A stretch of 44,895 bases of DNA from Escherichia phage VEc3: the sequence record NC_047899.1. One strand, given 5' to 3'. Below are positions 6,950 through 44,159 of this stretch, in pieces. The notes below the pieces were generated by a model. It was not told the DNA's origin. It made no database searches and saw nothing but the letters and a program-made list of their open reading frames with translations. Made by a program: the position numbers and the translations under genes. Each line of letters opens with the position of its first letter. Positions within the stretch are counted from its first letter, which is position 1.

Positions 6950-8938
6950 ATGGCTATTATTCAGAATGTACCGTGTCCTGCCTGTCAAAAGAATGGACAT
7001 GATATTACTGGCAACCATCTTATGATATTTGAGGATGGCGCTGGTTACTGTAACCGTGGTCACTTCCATGATAACGGTAAACCTTATTACCACAAGCCGG
7101 AAGGTGGCATCGAGATAACCGAGTTACCTATTACTGGCAATATCAAATATACACCTTCTCAATTCAAAGAAATGGAGAAGGAAGGGAAGATAAGCGACCC
7201 TAAGCTACGCGCCATCGCACTTGGTGGTATGCGTATGAAAGACCGTTGGGAGGTTATGAATGAGCAAGAAAGGGCAGACCAAGAAGCAGAGTGGAAACTT
7301 GATGTTGAATGGTTCCTCACGCTTAAGCGTAAGAACCTTGTATCCCGTCACATTCGAGGTGACATCGCAGCAATGTACGATGTGCGCGTTGGACACGATG
7401 AAGAGGGAAGAGTCAACCGTCACTATTATCCACGATATGAAAAGGGTGTGCTTGTTGGAGCAAAATGCCGGACGTTGCCGAAGGATTTTAAGTTCGGACA
7501 CCTAGGTAAACTCTTTGGTATGCAAGATCTTTTCGGTATGAACACTTTGTCTCACGTGTTAGACAAGGGGAGACGAAAGGATTGCTTGCTTATTGTAGGC
7601 GGTGAACTTGATGCACTAGCAGCGCAGCAGATGCTCCTTGATTCTGCCAAGGGTACTAAGTGGGAAGGCCAGCCATACCATGTATGGTCTGTCAACAAAG
7701 GTGAGTCTTGCCTTGAAGAGATAGTGCAGAACCGTGAGCATATCGCCCAATTCAAGAAGATTATTTGGGGCTTTGATGGGGATGGGGTTGGGCAGAAGCA
7801 GAACCAGCAAGCGGCTCGCCTGTTTCCCGGCAAATCCTATATCCTTGAATATCCTTCTGGTTGCAAAGATGCCAACAAGGCATTGATGGCTGGCAAGGCT
7901 AAAGAATTTGTGGATGCTTGGTTTAATGCAAAGTCATCTGATGAAGTCTTTGGTAGCCAGATTAAATCTATCGCATCTCAAAGAGATAAGCTCAAGGCTG
8001 CACGTCCAGAACAAGGGCTGTCATGGCCTTGGCCTAAGCTAAACAAGGTAACACTGGGTATCCGTAAGAACCAGCTTATCATTATAGGTGCAGGCTCTGG
8101 TGTAGGTAAGACTGAGTTCCTCCGTGAAGTAGTTAAGCATCTCATTGAAGAACACGGTGAATCTGTAGGCATCATTTCTACAGAAGACCCGATGGTCAAG
8201 GTGTCCCGTGCTTTTATCGGTAAGTGGATTGATAAGCGTATTGAGTTACCTCCAACCAATGACCCGAAAGAAGACGGATACCGTGAGGTGTTCGACTACA
8301 CCGAGGAAGAAGCTAACGCCGCCATTGATTATGTAGCTGATACAGGTAAGCTGTTTGTAGCTGACCTAGAAGGTGACTATTCGATGGAGAAGGTAGAGCA
8401 AACTTGCCTAGAGTTTGAGGCCATGGGTATTTCTAATATCATCATTGATAACTTAACGGGGATTAAATTAGATGAGCGTGCTTTTGGTGGGAAGGTTGGT
8501 GCACTTGATGAATGCGTCAAGCGGATTGGTACTATCAAAGACAGACACCCAGTTACTATATTCCTTGTATCACACCTTACACGTCCTCCGGCAAACCGTA
8601 CCCAACACGAAGAAGGTGGCGAGGTTATCCTTTCTGACTTCCGAGGCTCAGGAGCTATCGGATTCTGGGCATCTTACGCCTTGGGGATTGAGCGTAATAC
8701 AAGAGCTGAAACGCTTGACGAAAGGACTACCACGTATATCTCATGTGTCAAAGATCGCGACCAAGGTATCTTCACCGGAACCAAGATTATGCTTAAGGGT
8801 GATATTCAAACCGGACGTTTGAGAGAACCACAGGCTAGAACAAGGTCATTTGATACAGGTGAAGCAAGGCAACAAGAAGTGCCGGATTTACCGGACACTA
8901 TAGAAGAGACAACTTTTGACGATGAACAGGAGTTTTAA
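6950..8938 (+). CDS. DNA primase/helicase (gp4-like)
   Basis: 662 aa; N-terminal Cys4 zinc ribbon (CPACQ...CNRGHFH); Walker A GAGSGVGKT; acidic C-terminus ending ...DDEQEF. Confidence 0.9.
   Translation: MAIIQNVPCPACQKNGHDITGNHLMIFEDGAGYCNRGHFHDNGKPYYHKPEGGIEITELPITGNIKYTPSQFKEMEKEGKISDPKLRAIALGGMRMKDRWEVMNEQERADQEAEWKLDVEWFLTLKRKNLVSRHIRGDIAAMYDVRVGHDEEGRVNRHYYPRYEKGVLVGAKCRTLPKDFKFGHLGKLFGMQDLFGMNTLSHVLDKGRRKDCLLIVGGELDALAAQQMLLDSAKGTKWEGQPYHVWSVNKGESCLEEIVQNREHIAQFKKIIWGFDGDGVGQKQNQQAARLFPGKSYILEYPSGCKDANKALMAGKAKEFVDAWFNAKSSDEVFGSQIKSIASQRDKLKAARPEQGLSWPWPKLNKVTLGIRKNQLIIIGAGSGVGKTEFLREVVKHLIEEHGESVGIISTEDPMVKVSRAFIGKWIDKRIELPPTNDPKEDGYREVFDYTEEEANAAIDYVADTGKLFVADLEGDYSMEKVEQTCLEFEAMGISNIIIDNLTGIKLDERAFGGKVGALDECVKRIGTIKDRHPVTIFLVSHLTRPPANRTQHEEGGEVILSDFRGSGAIGFWASYALGIERNTRAETLDERTTTYISCVKDRDQGIFTGTKIMLKGDIQTGRLREPQARTRSFDTGEARQQEVPDLPDTIEETTFDDEQEF
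8886..8908 (+). promoter_or_regulatory. Phage RNAP promoter embedded in the primase/helicase 3' coding sequence
   Basis: ATTTACCGGACACTATAGAAGAG, full consensus; +1 G at 8903; encodes ...DLPDTIEE... Confidence 0.65.
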
Positions 8939-13230: not shown

Positions 13231-13253
13231 ATTTACTGGACACTATAGAAGGA
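13231..13253 (+). promoter_or_regulatory. Phage RNAP promoter (ATTTACTGGACACTATAGAAGGA)
   Basis: Full consensus; +1 G at 13248. Confidence 0.7.
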
Positions 13254-14924: not shown

Positions 14925-14947
14925 ATTTACTGGACACTATAGAAGAG
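14925..14947 (+). promoter_or_regulatory. Phage RNAP promoter (ATTTACTGGACACTATAGAAGAG)
   Basis: Full consensus; +1 G at 14942. Confidence 0.7.
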
Positions 14948-23402: not shown

Positions 23403-23425
23403 ATTTACTGGACACTATAGAAGGG
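23403..23425 (+). promoter_or_regulatory. Phage RNAP promoter for the capsid gene
   Basis: ATTTACTGGACACTATAGAAGGG; +1 G at 23420; transcript begins with hairpin GGGAGA-AATG-TCTCCC, then TAAGGAGG RBS. Confidence 0.75.
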
Positions 23426-34600: not shown

Positions 34601-34916
34601 TGCAATGGGTATGATGAGTACAACTGCTGTATTTAGTCTAGGTGGAGATTTCTTAGGTGGCCTAGGTGTTCTACCTTCTGAGTTAGTACAATCCCGTTAT
34701 GAGGCTGGCTTTCAGACTAAGGGTTTGATAGACCAAATACCACTAGTAGGTGTTGGTCAAGATGCATATCGTTTAGCAGATTCTATAACTAAATACGCAG
34801 AGGGTGATACAGAAGGTGTAGATGTGGCACGTAGGGTTTTACGCTTAGTGCCTCTAGCTAATGTAATAGGAATCCAGAACGCATTGCGTTATGGCTTAGA
34901 TGAACTGGAGGATTAA
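31608..34916 (+). CDS. Large internal virion/ejection protein (gp16-like)
   Basis: 1102 aa; position and size. Confidence 0.7.
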   Translation: MEQDIKTNWAGYVQSTPEPFSIEAAPVSAPTIRQRNELQEQVLEAKADADILGAVGAAFQKEWLAFGGKRWYDRATADFTPQPDFEIQPEQREALRFKYGTDMMQTITEGVRSEDELNFRIQNADEDLERNKRIAQAGWVGSVATIGAAVLDPVGWVASIPTGGAAKVGLVGRAVRGAIAAGVSNAAIESVLVQGDMTRDLDDIMVALGSGMAMGGVIGAVARGRATKLSEQGDDRAASIVRSADAGDRYVRAVADDSIGAMRVKGEELLTEGAFDISSKGEDLLKTLQREGNAIDMTPRRWAGTLSALGTVVHSSQDASVRGLGARLFESPQGLGMQKASASLMQNTNLNRLKSADMNRFNDGFDLWLKENNINPVAGHTNSHYVQQYNEKVWEAVRIGMDESTPKSIRMAAEGQQAMYREALALRQRSGEAGFEKVKADDKYMPDIFDSMKARRQFSMHDKEDIIELFSRAYQNGSRKVPKEVADDIARAQVNRVADATLTGQLSFEKAMSGQTKAEYEALMRKAGFSDEEIEKMVEALDNKETRDNISNRAKMSLGLDVTQEYNGIRMRDFMNTNVEELTDNYMKEAAGGAALARQGFSTYQAALNAIDLVERNARNAAKDTKAHAQFEAESAKIRQSEPDYKKAQEKIEELKKRLKLKEKDEAAGLAIDEEIRQMREGLRLIMGKSIDSNPQDLSTKMLRRGRDITGVLRLGQMGFAQLGELANFMGEFGIAATTMALGKQFRFTSKALRNGDGFFRDKNLAEVERMVGYIGEDNWLTTKGARPDEFGDVTTVRGMMAHFDQSMNSIRRAQTNLSLFRMAQGSLERMTNRQIALSFIDHLEGKKIIPQKKLEELGLTQEFMTNLQKHYDANSKGSGLLGFDTMPYAMGETLANAIRRKSGLIIQRNFIGDEGIWMNKALGKTFAQLKSFSLVSGEKQFGRGIRHDKIGLAKKTAYGFALGSIVYAAKAYVNSIGREDQDEYLEEKLSPKGLAFGAMGMMSTTAVFSLGGDFLGGLGVLPSELVQSRYEAGFQTKGLIDQIPLVGVGQDAYRLADSITKYAEGDTEGVDVARRVLRLVPLANVIGIQNALRYGLDELED

Positions 34917-35878
34917 TGAGTTATACTTTCACAGAACATATAGCCAACGGTACGCAAGTAACCTATCCCTTTAGCTTTGCTGGTAGGGATAAAGGTTATC
35001 TTCGTGCCTCAGATGTGATAGTGGAGTCTCTTCAAGGTAACACTTGGATTGAGGTTACATCTGGCTGGCAACTAACTGGCACGCACCAGATTACTTTTGA
35101 TGTAGCACCAGTTGCAGGTTTGAAGTTCCGTATTCGAAGGGAAGTACAAAAGGAGTATCCATACGCTGAGTTTGACCGTGGTGTTACCTTGGATATGAAG
35201 TCTTTAAATGGTTCTTTCATTCATATACTGGAGATTACACAGGAGTTACTTGACGGGTTTTATCCAGAAGGATACTTCATTAAACAGAATGTAAGCTGGG
35301 GCGGCAATAAGATTACTGATTTGGCTGATGGCACAAATCCTGGAGATGCAGTAAATAAAGGGCAGCTTGATGCCATCGACAAGAAGCATACAGATTGGAA
35401 CGCCAAACAGGACATTGAGATTGCTGGCCTTAAGGCTGGTATGACTTCTGGTATTGCGCACAGTTCTATTCCTTGGTACACGATAGCCAAAGGTGGTGAG
35501 GTTTCCGTAAAACCACCTTATGAATTTCAAGATGCACTAGTTTCCCTTAATGGGGTATTGCAGCACCAAATTGTAGGCGCATACTCTATAAGCAACAACA
35601 CTATCACTTTCGCAGAGCCGCTTGTGGCGGGTACAGAGGTGTATGTGGTGATTGGTAGTCGTGTGGCTACATCTGAACCTACTATTCAGTCAGAGTTGAA
35701 CTTTGACTTAATAGAAGGCCAACAAGTAGTACAGATTGGCTCTGCATTTAAGTACATTGAGGTCTACCTTGATGGATTATTACAACCTAAACTTGCTTAT
35801 CAGGTAGACGGTGACATTGTTACTTTCTCAGAAAGAGTACCAGAATGCCGGATGACTGCTAAGATTATCACAGCATAA
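34916..35878 (+). CDS. Tail fiber/tailspike adaptor protein (gp17 N-domain-like)
   Basis: 320 aa; N-terminal region resembles the T7 gp17 tail-attachment domain. Confidence 0.7.
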   Translation: MSYTFTEHIANGTQVTYPFSFAGRDKGYLRASDVIVESLQGNTWIEVTSGWQLTGTHQITFDVAPVAGLKFRIRREVQKEYPYAEFDRGVTLDMKSLNGSFIHILEITQELLDGFYPEGYFIKQNVSWGGNKITDLADGTNPGDAVNKGQLDAIDKKHTDWNAKQDIEIAGLKAGMTSGIAHSSIPWYTIAKGGEVSVKPPYEFQDALVSLNGVLQHQIVGAYSISNNTITFAEPLVAGTEVYVVIGSRVATSEPTIQSELNFDLIEGQQVVQIGSAFKYIEVYLDGLLQPKLAYQVDGDIVTFSERVPECRMTAKIITA

Positions 35879-35887
35879 GGAGGTGGG

Positions 35888-36082
35888 ATGATTAACTCCG
35901 AACTGGTAGATAGTGGTGTGAAGCTTGCGCCACCTGCACTCGTATCAGGTGGGTACTTCCTCGGTATCAGTTGGGATAATTGGGTGTTAATAGCAACATT
36001 CATTTATACCGTGTTGCAAATTGGGGACTGGTTTTATAATAAGTTCAAGATTTGGAGGGAGAAGCGTGAGCGTACACAATAA
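35888..36082 (+). CDS. Holin (class II-like)
   Basis: 64 aa; two hydrophobic segments and charged C-terminus KIWREKRERTQ; AAGGAGG RBS. Confidence 0.55.
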   Translation: MINSELVDSGVKLAPPALVSGGYFLGISWDNWVLIATFIYTVLQIGDWFYNKFKIWREKRERTQ

Positions 36083-36365
36083 ACATGCAGCTACAGAGGA
36101 CGAGGTTGGCATTCTGCATGGTGCTATTACCAAAATCTTCAATAAGAAAGCACAGGCAATACTGGACACTATAGAAGAAGACCCTGATGCAGCATTACAT
36201 TTAGTGTCTGGTAAGGATATTGGTGCGATGTGTAAGTGGGTTCTTGATAACGGCATTACCGCCACACCTGCTGCACAGCAGGAAGAGTCCAAGTTATCTA
36301 AGCGCCTCAAGGCTATCCGAGAGGCATCCAGTGGTAAGATAATTCAGTTTACAAAAGAGGAGTGA
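36066..36365 (+). CDS. Terminase small subunit (gp18-like), start uncertain
   Basis: GTG 36066 with GGAGGG RBS preferred; track ATG 36021 is the alternative; position between holin and terminase large subunit. Confidence 0.45.
   Translation: MSVHNKHAATEDEVGILHGAITKIFNKKAQAILDTIEEDPDAALHLVSGKDIGAMCKWVLDNGITATPAAQQEESKLSKRLKAIREASSGKIIQFTKEE
36157..36179 (+). promoter_or_regulatory. Phage RNAP promoter embedded in the terminase small subunit CDS
   Basis: GGCAATACTGGACACTATAGAAGAAG; +1 G at 36174; encodes ...AILDTIEED. Confidence 0.55.
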
Positions 36366-36366
36366 T

Positions 36367-36810
36367 ATGCATAGATGGTGTGAATCTCAAGGTTATACCA
36401 TCTTACCTTCTGGTGTCATCCTTTCAAAGGGTGGCACCCCTCTCAAACCATTCAAGGCGGGTAGGGGTTATTTAGCAGTTAAAATTAAAAATAAAGAAGG
36501 TAAATGGCGTAATGTCTATGTTCATCAATTAGTGGCTTATAAGTATTTACCTAAAACTAATAATGAAGTAAACCACAAAGACGGCGATAAGCACAACAAT
36601 GATGTTAGCAACTTGGAGTGGGTAACAAGAAGCGAGAATAACTATTTAAAATGCAATGGAAATGATAGGAGTGCCTTAAATAGCTATTTAGCAAGATTAA
36701 AAGATTGCTTCTTGCAAGGTAAGGGTGTAGCAGAAACCGCTAGACTTACTGGTAAAAGTGAACCAAGAGTTTCTTCTCTCTTTAAGGAGTGGCGAAATGG
36801 CAAAGGCTAG
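36367..36810 (+). CDS. HNH homing endonuclease inserted between the terminase genes
   Basis: 147 aa; VNHKDGDKHNNDVSNLEWVTRSENN motif; strongly AT-rich; paralogous in design to the HNH at 6396. Confidence 0.85.
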   Translation: MHRWCESQGYTILPSGVILSKGGTPLKPFKAGRGYLAVKIKNKEGKWRNVYVHQLVAYKYLPKTNNEVNHKDGDKHNNDVSNLEWVTRSENNYLKCNGNDRSALNSYLARLKDCFLQGKGVAETARLTGKSEPRVSSLFKEWRNGKG

Positions 36811-38860: not shown

Positions 38861-39139
38861 ATGGCTAATGATTATAGTAGTCAACCATTAACAGGTAAGT
38901 CTAAGAGAAAGCAGGTACAACTTGTAAGTGAAGAACTAATGCTTCCGGTAATCAAAAAAGAGGAAGCTAGTAAGAAAAGCAATGTCATTAATGATGCCAC
39001 CAAATCAGGTAAACAGAAAGGGGCCATGGTGTGCCTTGAAGCGGAAGGTGGTGTATTGAAGATTGCTATCGCGGTTGATGGCAAAGAAGATTCAGAGTGG
39101 AAGTTAGTAACAGTGGGAACCACTGTTACCCCAGTTTAA
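38861..39139 (+). CDS. Small protein, paralog A (92 aa)
   Basis: Shares SGKQKGAMV-LE...IA-A...W...TP with the adjacent ORF; strong RBS. Confidence 0.6.
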   Translation: MANDYSSQPLTGKSKRKQVQLVSEELMLPVIKKEEASKKSNVINDATKSGKQKGAMVCLEAEGGVLKIAIAVDGKEDSEWKLVTVGTTVTPV

Positions 39140-39157: not shown

Positions 39158-39448
39158 ATGGCTGAATATGGTACTACAGGTTCTGTTACGGGTCAGGCTT
39201 TTAGAGTGAAAGCAGTACAAACTGTTGCAACGGCAATCCCGATGCCTGTTGTTAAAGAAGAAGACCTTAAGAGTAAAGATCACCCTATCAACATCAAACA
39301 TTTATCAGGTAAACAGAAAGGTGCAATGGTTGCTCTTGAGAAAAAGAACACAACCTTACATATTGCTGTTGCACATGGTAGTGAACCAACAGACCCTTGG
39401 TATGTAACTAGCATGGAATCGCTCGCTGTCACTCCAGCAGGTGGATAA
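39158..39448 (+). CDS. Small protein, paralog B (96 aa)
   Basis: Paralogous to 38861-39139; AAGGAGG RBS. Confidence 0.6.
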   Translation: MAEYGTTGSVTGQAFRVKAVQTVATAIPMPVVKEEDLKSKDHPINIKHLSGKQKGAMVALEKKNTTLHIAVAHGSEPTDPWYVTSMESLAVTPAGG

Positions 39449-40369: not shown

Positions 40370-40392
40370 ATTTACTGGACAATATAGAAGAG
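40370..40392 (+). promoter_or_regulatory. Phage RNAP promoter variant (ATTTACTGGACAATATAGAAGAG)
   Basis: Single C to A change at -5; +1 G at 40387; upstream of tailspike 1. Confidence 0.55.
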
Positions 40393-40471
40393 ATAAGATA
40401 GCGCCGTTCTTTTGAGCGGCCTATTACTAGCCAATCTTCATAGGGAGGGTTGGAAAGTAATAGGAGATAGC

Positions 40472-42370
40472 ATGGCTAAATTAACCAAACCTAATACTGA
40501 AGGAATCTTGCATAAAGGACAATCTTTGTATGAGTACCTTGATGCGAGAGTTTTAACATCAAAGCCGTTTGGTGCTGCAGGTGACGCCACTACTGATGAT
40601 ACGAAGGTTATAGCTGCTTCATTAAACTCTCAGAAAGCTGTCACAGTCTCAGATGGTGTATTCTCTAGCTCTGGTATTAATAGTAATTACTGTAACTTAG
40701 ACGGTAGAGGTAGTGGCGTGCTAAGTCACCGTTCCAGTACAGGTAACTACTTAGTATTTAACAATCTACGTGCAGGTCGCTTAAGTAATATTACGGTAGA
40801 AAGTAATAAGGCGACTGATACAACTCAGGGACAGCAGGTATCTCTTGCTGGTGGAAGTGATGTTACTGTAAGTGACGTTAACTTCTCAAACGTTAAAGGT
40901 ACTGGTTTCAGTTTAATCGCATACCCTAATGATGCGCCACCTGATGGACTTATGATTAAAGGCATTCGAGGTAGCTATTCAGGCTATGCTACTAATAAGG
41001 CAGCCGGATGCGTACTTGCTGACTCCTCAGTTAACTCCCTCATAGATAACGTCATTGCTAAGAACTACCCTCGGTTCGGAGCAGTAGAGTTGAAAGGTAC
41101 AGCCAGTTACAACATAGTCAGTAATGTTATAGGGGCAGATTGCCAGCATGTAACTTACAACGGCACTGAAGGGCCAATAGCTCCTTCTAATAACCTTATC
41201 AAGGGGGTGATGGCTAATAACCCTAAGTATGCAGCGGTTGTTGCAGGCAAAGGAAGTACGAACTTAATCTCAGACGTGCTAGTAGATTACTCAACTTCTG
41301 ATGCTAGGCAGGCTCATGGTGTTACCGTAGAAGGGTCTGATAACGTCATAAATAATGTGCTTATGTCAGGATGTGATGGTACTAACTCTTTAGGACAAGT
41401 GCAGACTGCTACAATTGCACGCTTTATAGGTACAGCTAATAACAACTATGCGTCTGTATTTCCTAGCTACAGTGCTACAGGTGTTATTACTTTCGAATCC
41501 GGCTCTACCCGTAACTTCGTAGAGGTAAAGCACCCTGGCAGGAGAAACGACCTTCTCAGTTCTGCTAGTACTATTGACGGTGCAGCTACTATTGACGGCA
41601 CTAGTAATAGTAACGTAGTGCACGCACCTGCCTTAGGGCAGTACATAGGTAGTATGTCAGGTAGGTTCGAATGGCGGATTAAGTCCATGTCACTCCCTTC
41701 AGGCGTTCTTACTTCTGCTGATAAGTACAGAATGCTTGGAGATGGTGCTGTGTCATTAGCTGTAGGTGGGGGCACTTCTTCTCAAGTTCGCCTATTTACT
41801 TCTGGTGGTACTTCTCGGACAGTGTCCCTCACCAACGGTAACGTGCGTCTTTCTACCAGTAGCACAGGCTTTTTGCAGTTAGGTGCTGATGCAATGACCC
41901 CAGACAGTACTGGTACATACGCATTAGGTTCCGCCAGTCGAGCATGGTCTGGCGGTTTTACTCAAGCAGCATTCACTGTTACCTCAGATGCTCGGTGTAA
42001 AACAGAACCTCTTACTATCTCAGATGCCTTACTGGATGCTTGGTCTGAAGTTGACTTTGTGCAGTTTCAGTATTTGGATCGTGTTGAGGAGAAGGGTGCA
42101 GACTCAGCTAGATGGCACTTTGGCATCATCGCTCAGCGAGCTAAGGAGGCTTTCGAACGTCACGGTATAGATGCACATCGCTATGGCTTCTTGTGCTTCG
42201 ACAGTTGGGATGATGTATACGAGGAAGATGCCAATGGCTCTCGTAAACTGATTACACCAGCAGGTTCCCGCTACGGTATTCGTTACGAGGAAGTACTGAT
42301 ATTAGAGGCTGCGTTGATGCGGCGGACTATTAAGCGTATGCAGGAAGCACTAGCTGCCCTTCCTAAGTAA
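40472..42370 (+). CDS. Tailspike 1 with C-terminal intramolecular chaperone domain; probable capsule depolymerase
   Basis: 632 aa from ATG 40472 (AGGAG RBS); Ser/Thr/Gly/Asn-rich beta-helix-like body; C-terminal SDARCK...WHFGIIAQRAKEAF...GIRYEEVLILEA matches the self-cleaving chaperone module of endosialidase/K5-lyase tailspikes (by recall). Confidence 0.8.
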   Translation: MAKLTKPNTEGILHKGQSLYEYLDARVLTSKPFGAAGDATTDDTKVIAASLNSQKAVTVSDGVFSSSGINSNYCNLDGRGSGVLSHRSSTGNYLVFNNLRAGRLSNITVESNKATDTTQGQQVSLAGGSDVTVSDVNFSNVKGTGFSLIAYPNDAPPDGLMIKGIRGSYSGYATNKAAGCVLADSSVNSLIDNVIAKNYPRFGAVELKGTASYNIVSNVIGADCQHVTYNGTEGPIAPSNNLIKGVMANNPKYAAVVAGKGSTNLISDVLVDYSTSDARQAHGVTVEGSDNVINNVLMSGCDGTNSLGQVQTATIARFIGTANNNYASVFPSYSATGVITFESGSTRNFVEVKHPGRRNDLLSSASTIDGAATIDGTSNSNVVHAPALGQYIGSMSGRFEWRIKSMSLPSGVLTSADKYRMLGDGAVSLAVGGGTSSQVRLFTSGGTSRTVSLTNGNVRLSTSSTGFLQLGADAMTPDSTGTYALGSASRAWSGGFTQAAFTVTSDARCKTEPLTISDALLDAWSEVDFVQFQYLDRVEEKGADSARWHFGIIAQRAKEAFERHGIDAHRYGFLCFDSWDDVYEEDANGSRKLITPAGSRYGIRYEEVLILEAALMRRTIKRMQEALAALPK

Positions 42371-42377
42371 GCAACAG

Positions 42378-42400
42378 GCAGTGCGTAAGCACTGCTTTTC
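42378..42400 (+). terminator. Hairpin plus T-run between the two tailspike genes
   Basis: GCAGTGC-GTAA-GCACTGC followed by TTTTC. Confidence 0.55.
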
Positions 42401-42455: not shown

Positions 42456-44159
42456 ATGCTTCAAAGATTAGGCTCCAAATTAGTCTCATCTAAAGTTTCA
42501 CACTATGGTGTTTCTAGGGTACTATCAGATAAACTAGATGAAATAGTTACACCATTAGATATTAATAGTGGCAATTCATTAGTTCAAGCTATGGCTGCAT
42601 CTGGTAATAGGTTCTCCGTGTTTAACTCAACAGATACCTTCAAGATTACAGTAGGCGATGGTGGAGACTATTCAACTTTGTACGAAGCCATAGAGGGTGC
42701 TTGCAAAATGCGACCTACCTATAAAGAAGGTAAGAGCTATTGTGAAATCTCTCTTAAAAGAGGCTTTATATTAAGAGAGCAATTGGAGTTCACGGGAGGT
42801 TTTGACTTATCTTGGATTAAGATAACATCTGAAGATGAAGTAGTGTATGCAGATACTTCGTCCTTTACAAAGAAAGTAAGACATTACTATGAGTATAAGT
42901 ACCTGTTCCTATTTACAGAAGGTACAAAGAGTCCTATCTTCTCTATATTGATTCAAGAAAACAGAGATGATAGTGATGTTTGTGCCTTTATGATTACAAG
43001 GTTTGCAGAGCTTAATTTCTGGCCTGGATCTGGTGCACGTAAGTTTTATGTGGGTGTAGATTCTCAGTTTGGATGCTGGATTAAAGGCTACCACACTGGG
43101 TCTGCACCGGACAAGACTGCTGTAGATAAATATCAACCACCGGGGTACTTCCTCTGCGACTTTTCTGATAGCAGATATAATGCCATCATGGCTTACTCTA
43201 GTTATGTACACCTTCCTTGTAGTAAGTTTGATAGAAGTGGTAATAGTTTTAATCAACCCTCTGTTACATGTATTTATAATACAGTTGCACACTTTCAAGG
43301 ATCTTCTGCCAAAGATTGCTACATAGGTTGGAATATACGATATGGAGCACATGTTAACATGCGAGATCATCAAACTACCAACTGTACATACAGAGGTCTT
43401 ACTTGTATACATGGAGTCTTTGTAGATGCAAGACGTCACGATGTGGAAGGGACAGACATACCGACAAGCGGTAAGGTATTAAATCCAGAAGAGCAGAATG
43501 GCTTCTATGGGTGTTTAACAGGTGTGCAAGTAGACGGTGCAACTATTGTAGATCTAGCAGGGAATGATATGCGAAACTGTGGTACTACTATTAAATGCGA
43601 TAACGGTGCTGTGGTTTCAGCTAAAGGATTGGACGTATCTGGAGCTAAGACTATGGTTTTCCAATGCCAAGGTGGCTCAACTGTAGCTTGTCCTAGGTTA
43701 TGGGCAGACAACATCAAACAATTATGTGTGTTACGTTATGACTCAAAAGTAACAAGCCGTTGGGCTACAATAACTACACATACTAAGTTTGAGCAGCTTA
43801 GTCGTTTCTGTGATGCAGATATGTCAAGTCATTTAACTCTATCTGACTCCAAGATAGATGGAGATATAGCATTCTTTGCTGGTAACTCATCTACTATCTC
43901 TATCTCTGGTTCAAGTACGGTTAAAGTAAGAGCCTTTAGATCATTTACTGGTTCTAAGGTTACTCTATCTGGTATTACTTATAACCCTGAGTATGCTAAG
44001 GCTGTATCACCAGAAGAACTACAATTTAGGATTTCTCAAGGAGGGATTATAGCAATGAACCCTATCACCATCTCCGATGGGTCTGTGCCTATCTTGTCTA
44101 AACCACGTAATACCTTATCAGATGCAGGTATTATCTTCTCTGCGGTAGGTAATATCTGA
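42456..44159 (+). CDS. Tailspike 2 / second receptor-binding protein, Cys-rich, AT-rich
   Basis: 567 aa; AAGGAGG RBS; terminal position as in two-tailspike SP6/K1-5-like phages; no domain recognised. Confidence 0.55.
   Translation: MLQRLGSKLVSSKVSHYGVSRVLSDKLDEIVTPLDINSGNSLVQAMAASGNRFSVFNSTDTFKITVGDGGDYSTLYEAIEGACKMRPTYKEGKSYCEISLKRGFILREQLEFTGGFDLSWIKITSEDEVVYADTSSFTKKVRHYYEYKYLFLFTEGTKSPIFSILIQENRDDSDVCAFMITRFAELNFWPGSGARKFYVGVDSQFGCWIKGYHTGSAPDKTAVDKYQPPGYFLCDFSDSRYNAIMAYSSYVHLPCSKFDRSGNSFNQPSVTCIYNTVAHFQGSSAKDCYIGWNIRYGAHVNMRDHQTTNCTYRGLTCIHGVFVDARRHDVEGTDIPTSGKVLNPEEQNGFYGCLTGVQVDGATIVDLAGNDMRNCGTTIKCDNGAVVSAKGLDVSGAKTMVFQCQGGSTVACPRLWADNIKQLCVLRYDSKVTSRWATITTHTKFEQLSRFCDADMSSHLTLSDSKIDGDIAFFAGNSSTISISGSSTVKVRAFRSFTGSKVTLSGITYNPEYAKAVSPEELQFRISQGGIIAMNPITISDGSVPILSKPRNTLSDAGIIFSAVGNI

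Follow-up and report, generated by a model that had tools for sequence, protein, structure and literature searches.

Descriptions of the chaperone domain at the C-terminus of phage tailspikes, of how it works and of its occurrence in K5 lyases date back to 2007-2010. This intramolecular chaperone (CIMCD), in which a Ser-Lys dyad is essential, is carried by four phage families, the K5 lyases among them (PMC8326128), and for T5 both structure and mechanism have been described (PMC4690869). The C-terminal helix of the domain is assigned a coiled-coil role (PMC4690869; PMC8326128), and an arginine from the stalk of the neighbouring chain, 14 residues before the serine, has been proposed as folding sensor or oxyanion hole (R897 in endoNF, R1250 in T5). 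For phage K1-5, a review table lists ORF46 as a trimeric protein of 67 kDa that measures 52 kDa when mature (PMC5380687), and the adaptor-docking heptapeptide MAKLTKP of K1-5 gp46 has been described (PMC6872550). Related Vectreviruses that carry the K5 lyase gene replicate on K5 strains (PMC8541614).

The window analysed here, a stretch of 44,895 nucleotides, matches Escherichia phage VEc3 of the genus Vectrevirus, and on its plus strand (40472..42370) it carries a kflA-type gene for a K5 lyase precursor, which we term tailspike 1. At a probability of roughly 0.96, the phage is a K1-5-like podophage and the product of this gene is KflA, its lyase for the K5 (heparosan) capsule, complete with a releasable intramolecular chaperone. 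The reading frame, as read from the sequence, opens with ATG and runs for 632 codons plus a stop, giving a protein of calculated mass 66.7 kDa that is identical to YP_009796119.1 of Escherichia phage VEc3 and is covered along its whole length (residues 1-632 of 632) by phrog_14895, 'tail spike protein'. Eighty nucleotides upstream of the ATG lies a phage RNA-polymerase promoter-like 23-mer, ATTTACTGGACAATATAGAAGAG (40370..40392, plus strand), which occurs in five copies on the plus strand of the window when up to three mismatches are allowed, against none expected by chance, and which resembles the SP6 promoter consensus. The 23-mer overlaps the 'promoter' annotation of the K5A record Y10025.2, and the same record annotates a ribosome-binding site at the place equivalent to the AGGAG read from the sequence 5 nt before the tailspike 1 start (40462..40466, plus strand). 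Since it lacks a ribosome-binding site, and since the K1-5, K5A and Sem1 annotations and the crystallised chain 2x3h all begin with MAKLTKP, an alternative TTG start at 40412, which would give 652 residues, was rejected. Open reading frames of 50-102 residues on the opposite strand or in other frames inside the gene were likewise set aside as mechanical, lying as they do within a strongly conserved coding region. Downstream, between the two tailspike genes, the plus strand holds a hairpin (GCAGTGC-GTAA-GCACTGC followed by TTTT; 42378..42399) that is a weak terminator-like element, with only four T after the stem on that strand, which places it below the terminator rule of the scan.

Along all 1899 nt the gene is 98.9% identical to that of K1-5 gp46, 'K5 lyase', and 626 of the 632 residues agree (six amino-acid differences), while 623 of 632 agree with KflA of phage K5A (nine differences). 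The PDB entry 2x3h, 'K5 lyase', aligns to residues 1-505 with 1064 bits and nine differences, and this crystallised chain of mature KflA terminates exactly at Ser505. An earlier note on this DNA had suggested, from the 632-residue length and the N-terminus, a K5-lyase-like capsule depolymerase; the suggestion holds and can be sharpened, in that tailspike 1, judged by its sequence, is not merely K5-lyase-like but KflA itself. The encapsulated E. coli host that the note went on to propose follows from this identity, the capsule being K5 (heparosan), and the growth of related Vectreviruses with the gene on K5 strains agrees with it. Both the beta-eliminative cleavage of heparosan, at 98.6-99.1% identity, and the specificity for K5 would be expected from the near-identical and homologous proteins. 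Identity as an endosialidase was considered and rejected: only residues ~467-632 resemble 3gw6 or the K1F and K1E endosialidases, the remainder of the chain being KflA, and with no sialidase catalytic domain found in tailspike 1, the chaperone module alone is held in common with those enzymes.

This module comprises 128 residues (505-632; 41984..42367, plus strand; calculated 14.7 kDa) at the extreme C-terminus of the protein, begins with SDARCK (residues 505-510, nt 41984-42001) and includes WHFGIIAQRAKEAF at residues 548-561. It matches PF13884, Peptidase_S74 'chaperone of endosialidase', over residues 505-565 (profile positions 1-57 of 58) with 54.5 bits and E=1.5e-14, the gathering cut-off of the family being 22 bits. 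Among solved structures, the chaperone of GA-1 gp12 (3gud) aligns with E=1.3e-23 (residues 505-623 of tailspike 1 to residues 1-120 of the structure), its chain beginning SDERHK at the equivalent of residue 505, and that of the K1F endosialidase (3gw6) with E=1.2e-21 in two stretches extending to residue 630; further PDB matches are 7y5s (E=3e-21), 6eu4 (E=2e-19) and T5 pb1, 4uw8 (E=2e-10). By tblastn, 607 phage records were found to have the domain at the C-terminal end of a tail protein, and among ten aligned spikes from diverse phages, which include K1F, K1E, T5, RaK2, KMB36, S-CBP4, phiA005 and IL33, S505, K510, H549, G551, Q555, G565, Y571 and R604 are invariant. The alignment to KflA and endosialidase chaperones that the earlier note had proposed as a check gives 100% identity to the C-terminal domain of K5A KflA and ~34-41% to the K1F endosialidase and GA-1 domains. 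The note's claim that the last ~130 residues, from SDARCK onwards, form this chaperone is thus borne out by the profile, the structures and the retained dyad positions, and by homology these residues are a bona fide intramolecular chaperone related to those of the endosialidases, whose function in tailspike 1 may be expected to be that of its near-identical and homologous counterparts. A chance or low-complexity resemblance to the endosialidase chaperone, the one alternative to which we give no weight at all, is refuted by matches to independent profiles and to solved structures whose E-values run from 1e-14 to 1e-23, over 119-165 aligned residues and with the catalytic positions conserved.

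In the fold of the family, a helical hairpin and a long beta-hairpin 'tentacle' are accompanied by a C-terminal trimeric coiled coil. A helix at residues ~605-628 (42284..42355, plus strand), which pairs in the alignments with the last helices of 3gud and 3gw6, is predicted to build this coiled coil, the nucleus of trimerisation, and corresponds to helix H139-162 of a single-sequence AF2 model, in a block with pLDDT 71-83. The monomer model as a whole (residues 467-632) has a mean pLDDT of 58.8, with just the helices moderately confident, and Foldseek of this low-confidence model against the PDB returned no match with E<1. Neither result speaks for or against the fold, since the prediction was made without an alignment and for a single chain of what is an obligate intertwined trimer.

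The predicted scissile and nucleophilic serine is Ser505 (codon 41984..41986, plus strand), whose aligned counterparts are residue 1 of 3gud, the position of S911A in 3gw6 and, in the K1F record, the start of the released part, a mat_peptide named 'gp17-CTD'. Lys510 (codon 41999..42001, plus strand), at Ser+5, would serve the Ser-Lys dyad as general base and is equivalent to K916 of endoNF, K1269 of T5 and K592 of MyRF (PMC8326128; PMC4690869). The 2x3h alignment points to residues 1-504 (40472..41983, plus strand) as the mature lyase, a beta-helix body followed by an intertwined C-terminal stalk. Its calculated mass of 52.0 kDa and that of the precursor agree with the 52 and 67 kDa listed for K1-5 ORF46 (PMC5380687). 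Sources vary by one residue in where they place the scissile bond: the serine is kept in the mature chain in 2x3h and in the T5 GenBank record, and stands on the released domain in the K1F record and in the T5 crystal paper (PMC4690869). From its near-identical and homologous relatives, tailspike 1 is predicted to undergo trimer-dependent autocleavage.

Two other readings of the protein have to be weighed against that of an active KflA with a releasable chaperone. It is conceivable, but very improbable, that the C-terminal domain, although a homologue of the chaperone, stays on the mature spike to form its tip, with a structural or receptor-binding role. The sole arginine near the place of the sensor residue, R490 in the motif SRAW, stands at -15, one position away from that of endoNF and T5, most homologues having xRW/F with the arginine at -14; RaK2 gp530, in the 10-sequence alignment, is without an arginine at this position. 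Furthermore, the entry 9vvr, an 843-residue Kayfunavirus lyase, lists the full-length sequence including the domain, although a SEQRES record is silent on what was ordered. Retention is hard to reconcile with a dyad of Ser505 and Lys510 that is intact and invariant, with complete identity to the K5A KflA domain, whose crystallised chain ends at Ser505, and with the 67 and 52 kDa reported for K1-5 ORF46 and its mature form (PMC5380687); moreover, a chaperone that is left uncleaved in T5 prevents receptor binding (PMC4690869).

Scarcely more credible is the proposal that substitutions in this KflA homologue have changed or abolished its K5 lyase activity, so that a K5 host would no longer be indicated. 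E45K, Q201R, G310V and D445G, all in the mature part, are absent from K1-5, K5A and Sem1, and Q201R sits five residues ahead of E206, the nearer of the pair E206 and K208, which are putative catalytic residues, Y229 presumably also having a catalytic role. Against this stand the 98.6-99.1% identity to characterised enzymes, the presence of E206, K208 and Y229, an intact reading frame, the conservation of the gene at 90-99% nucleotide identity in 52 phage records and the growth on K5 strains of related Vectreviruses with the gene (PMC8541614). There is a slight chance, somewhat greater than that of either reading, that the KflA lineage runs its autocleavage switch with a slightly different geometry, as R490 and SRAW may hint, and that Q201R, near the proposed active site, and the other substitutions in the mature part modulate activity or substrate range; both ideas stem from the alignment and from nothing else.

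Taking tailspike 1 as KflA with a releasable chaperone, the following sequence of events may be proposed. The protein would be made as the 66.7-kDa precursor, the last 128 residues of which are the putative chaperone. The C-terminal helices of three chains would associate and provide a template on which the intertwined stalk, behind the beta-helix lyase domain in the chain, could fold. After correct folding of the trimer, Ser505 would attack the Thr504-Ser505 peptide bond, with Lys510 as its activator. The mature spike would then dock through MAKLTKP onto the adaptor, beside a second, unrelated tailspike, and would depolymerise the K5 capsule so that the phage reaches the cell surface. The heptapeptide (40472..40492, plus strand), the predicted docking peptide for the tail adaptor, is identical to that of K1-5 gp46 (PMC6872550). 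The adaptor, a K1-5 gp37-like protein of 320 residues onto which both tailspikes are predicted to dock, is encoded at 34916..35878 on the plus strand, has the PF03906 Phage_T7_tail N-terminal domain, belongs to phrog_2710 and matches the 'tail adaptor protein' of PDB 7y22_e with E=3e-79. Its other predicted partner, tailspike 2 (42456..44159, plus strand; 567 aa), has an N-terminus, MLQRLGSKLVS, that resembles the K1-5 undecapeptide MIQRLGSSLVK. A chaperone domain sought in tailspike 2 gave no Pfam match, no PDB match and no similarity to tailspike 1. Tailspike 2 is a swapped cassette, and a less ordinary feature than tailspike 1.

What tailspike 1 displays is already known, and it adds no new biology. 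The public record names it only as a 'tail fiber/tail spike protein', whereas the more specific annotation would be that of the precursor of a lyase for the K5 (heparosan) capsule whose chaperone is releasable; by this annotation, the phage would be expected to infect E. coli with a K5 capsule. For expression of the depolymerase, the full-length gene should be cloned, because the chaperone is predicted to be needed for folding, and a product of 52 kDa is to be expected.

The closest described systems are KflA of K5A (Y10025.2; 2x3h) and gp46 of K1-5 (AAG59821.1), with which tailspike 1 shares the length of 632 residues, the N-terminus MAKLTKP, the layout of upstream promoter and ribosome-binding site, and the genomic position between the lysis and small genes and tailspike 2. 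It differs from them only by point substitutions, of which E45K, Q201R, D445G and Val310 are specific to the VEc3 allele; the second tailspike gene of these phages, on the other hand, is not that of VEc3, being an endosialidase in K1-5 and other ORFs in K5A and Sem1. Also close are the 843-residue K5 lyase tailspikes of the T7-like Kayfunaviruses (9vvr; PM139, R1), to which residues 31-631, including the chaperone, are ~95% identical; there, however, a T7 gp17-type N-terminal anchor of ~240 residues is fused to the lyase, whereas tailspike 1 relies on the heptapeptide and a separate adaptor. EndoNF of K1F (3gw6) and gp12 of GA-1 (3gud) are likewise trimeric spikes that end in a homologous domain (PF13884; MEROPS S74), with the dyad of Ser and Lys(+5), the conserved H, G, Q, G, Y and R positions and the C-terminal helix; the domains are only about 34-41% identical. 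The mid-domain insertion of ~30 residues in endoNF is absent from the tailspike 1 chaperone, which also differs in its upstream arginine at -15 rather than -14 and in its cargo, a beta-helix lyase in place of a sialidase beta-propeller. Finally, the L-shaped tail fibre protein pb1 of T5 (4uw8) has the same domain and the same proposed mechanism, in which Ser1264 and Lys1269 act and cleavage occurs only after correct folding of the trimer, but at 29% identity, and its cargo is an O-antigen-binding fibre tip rather than an enzyme.

The first tailspike of VEc3 is encoded on the + strand at 40472-42370, a reading frame of 632 codons plus stop that begins with ATG and is preceded by a ribosome-binding AGGAG (40462-40466, +) lying 5 nt 5' of it. 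A TTG start at 40412, taken from a mechanical list of open reading frames, was rejected as it is used by no homologue. The gene specifies a KflA-type lyase. Megablast against 50,697 phage records matched 52, the best being coliphage K1-5 gp46, annotated 'K5 lyase' (98.9% identity over all 1899 nt), while the kflA record of phage K5 (Y10025.2) is 98.7% identical. Six protein differences separate it from K1-5 gp46 (E45K, Q201R, T222A, G310V, D445G and S629A) and nine from KflA of phage K5A. A sequence search of the PDB recovered 2x3h, 'K5 lyase', with 1064 bits across query residues 1-505, and the heptapeptide MAKLTKP is present unchanged. The length and N-terminus, which the earlier note had taken to be consistent with a K5-lyase-like depolymerase, do fit a K5 lyase, and from this kinship the VEc3 allele would be expected to be K5-specific. 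The identity of the lyase gene, coupled with similarity to other Vectrevirus genomes (95-96.5% over the first 25 kb; 96.5% for the best genome match in the phage collection, whose hits did not include VEc3), indicates that the window is a K1-5-like podophage genome, and VEc3 is cited as a Vectrevirus reference genome, NC_047899.1 (PMC11162368). Both spikes exactly match public VEc3 proteins (AUE22280.1 / YP_009796119.1 for the lyase, YP_009796120.1 for tailspike 2); the lyase is named there just 'tail fiber/tail spike protein'.

The last 128 residues of the lyase form the intramolecular chaperone domain, as had been proposed for its final 130 or so residues. Pfam assigns residues 505-565 to PF13884 (Peptidase_S74, 'chaperone of endosialidase') with 54.5 bits (E=1.5e-14) against a gathering cut-off of 22 bits, and the two strings quoted in support, SDARCK and WHFGIIAQRAKEAF, lie where they were placed, at residues 505-510 (nt 41984-42001) and 548-561. 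Matches among solved chaperone domains are 3gud, the GA-1 neck appendage protein (E=1.3e-23; its chain start SDERHK aligned to residue 505), 3gw6, the S911A mutant of the K1F endosialidase (E=1.2e-21; the mutant Ala opposite Ser505), and further 7y5s, 6eu4 and, from the L-shaped fibre of T5, 4uw8. The proposed kinship with the KflA and endosialidase chaperones is likewise borne out, the K5A domain being 100% identical to that of VEc3 by tblastn. When residues 505-632 were used as the tblastn query, the module was found in 607 phage records, C-terminal in spikes and fibres of podo-, sipho- and myoviruses of Escherichia, Klebsiella, Salmonella, Aeromonas and even Synechococcus; K5 lyases are one of four phage protein families described as carrying it (PMC8326128). 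In an alignment of the VEc3 module with those of K1-5, K1F, K1E, T5, RaK2, KMB36, S-CBP4, phiA005 and IL33, eight positions are invariant (S505, K510, H549, G551, Q555, G565, Y571 and R604). By every test run, tailspike 1 thus belongs to the KflA family and to Peptidase_S74; it is not an endosialidase, with which it has only the chaperone module in common. Residues 467-632, modelled by AF2 from the single sequence, gave a poor model (pLDDT 58.8) with moderate confidence in helices only, including residues 605-628, and no significant Foldseek match; for an obligate intertwined trimer both results are uninformative. Collectively, the chaperone assignment is correct and already known, and its worth lies in precise annotation.

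Ser505 and Lys510 are the counterparts of a Ser-Lys dyad that mutagenesis has found indispensable in endoNF, the K1F endosialidase (S911/K916), and in MyRF (S587/K592; PMC8326128), and that has been proposed for T5 pb1 (S1264/K1269; PMC4690869). By analogy with these homologues (PMC4690869, PMC8326128), the C-terminal helices of three chains would assemble into a coiled coil, which makes the chains trimerise and serves as template for the intertwined stalk upstream. Only correct folding of the stalk would bring in the arginine of a neighbouring chain to complete the oxyanion hole, whereupon the Lys-activated serine would cut the Thr-Ser bond and the chaperone depart; the VEc3 allele probably folds and is cleaved in this way. 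The calculated masses are 66.7 kDa for the precursor, 52.0 kDa for residues 1-504 and 14.7 kDa for residues 505-632, and K1-5 ORF46 is tabulated in a review as '67 / mature form 52 / trimer' (PMC5380687). Ser505 is the exact last residue of the crystallised mature KflA chain 2x3h, and the K1F GenBank record begins its released 'gp17-CTD, intramolecular triple-beta-helix chaperone domain' at the serine aligned with it. The predicted scissile bond is accordingly uncertain by one residue, since the serine stays on the mature chain in 2x3h and the T5 GenBank record but belongs to the released domain according to the T5 crystal paper and the K1F record. The stalk arginine stands at -15 from the serine, in S-R-A-W, both in KflA and in the spike of the Kagunavirus KMB36 (R490 in KflA; the VEc3 motif spans residues 490-492, 41939-41947). 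It is at -14 (x-R-W/F) in endoNF, K1E, T5, S-CBP4, phiA005 and IL33, and in the same ten-sequence alignment RaK2 gp530 has no Arg at this position.

Upstream of the lyase gene lies a promoter-like 23-mer, ATTTACTGGACAATATAGAAGAG (40370-40392), one of five + strand copies in the window (up to 3 mismatches; 0 expected by chance), the others being at 8886-8908, 13231-13253, 14925-14947 and 23403-23425. The consensus is ATTTACTGGACA(C/A)TATAGAAG(AG), with A at position 13 in the lyase-upstream copy only and C in the other four. By their form these are presumably promoters of the phage's own RNA polymerase, and they resemble the SP6 promoter consensus. Elsewhere, an HNH_3 endonuclease frame (36367-36810, +; 147 aa; PF13392, E=2.6e-11) follows the gene for the small DNA-packaging protein (36021-36365, PF11123) and overlaps the start of the large terminase, which is likely to be the ATG at 36797 (giving 632 aa, equal to K1-5 gp40). 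As gp39 directly adjoins gp40 in K1-5, this frame looks like a homing-endonuclease insertion. Two adjacent + strand frames of 92 and 96 aa (38861-39139 and 39158-39448) have in common an internal SGKQKGAMV.LE motif and a C-terminal VTP. They are joined by a 37-nt blastn cross-match (39004-39039 and 39304-39339), each segment of which matches both K1-5 genes 41 and 42, and have the appearance of a tandemly duplicated pair of small proteins.

At the nucleotide level, homology with K1-5, Sem1 and K5A extends across the lyase gene and the spacer behind it (85 nt), breaks 15-29 nt inside tailspike 2 (42456-44159, +; 567 aa) at about 42470-42484, right after the docking peptide, and restarts exactly at the last base of that gene, 44159. 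The adaptor-docking N-terminus is kept (MLQRLGSKLVS, compared with MIQRLGSSLVK in K1-5), and the body is a foreign, swapped cassette. For this body Pfam gave no family, the PDB no relative by sequence and the phage collection no megablast match. The protein is about 47% identical to tail spikes of the ~39-kb coliphages HEMP4, JEP4 and HZ41 and of the 130-kb phage 92CQ. It aligns to phrog_5662 at profile positions 168-728/729, a start which implies about 167 extra N-terminal residues in its relatives. Tailspike 2 has no Peptidase_S74 or other chaperone domain and must therefore fold without this chaperone. At 90% identity it falls in a cluster of 22 members; the 15 listed are mostly of metagenomic source, several on contigs of ~43-45 kb. 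The spacer, conserved in K1-5, K5A and Sem1, carries a hairpin with a perfect 7-bp GC-rich stem and GTAA loop (GCAGTGC-GTAA-GCACTGC, then TTTT; 42378-42399, +). The hairpin falls short of the T-run rule of the terminator scan on the + strand; it may serve as either a weak terminator or a site of RNA processing.

In K1-5, MAKLTKP docks the lyase to the adaptor gp37 (PMC6872550), and VEc3 has a tail adaptor gene at 34916-35878 (PF03906 N-terminal domain; PDB 7y22, 'tail adaptor protein', E=3e-79). In Kayfunaviruses (PDB 9vvr, phages PM139/R1), by contrast, spikes of 843 aa join the same lyase and chaperone to an anchor of the T7 gp17 type and are about 95% identical to the VEc3 lyase over residues 31-631, an example of the modular exchange that earlier work had described for these proteins (PMC6872550, PMC5380687). 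Earlier reports also include Vectreviruses in which the first spike is a K5 lyase and the second varies (PMC11162368), and one that combines the lyase with an endosialidase replicates on K1 as well as K5 strains (PMC8541614).
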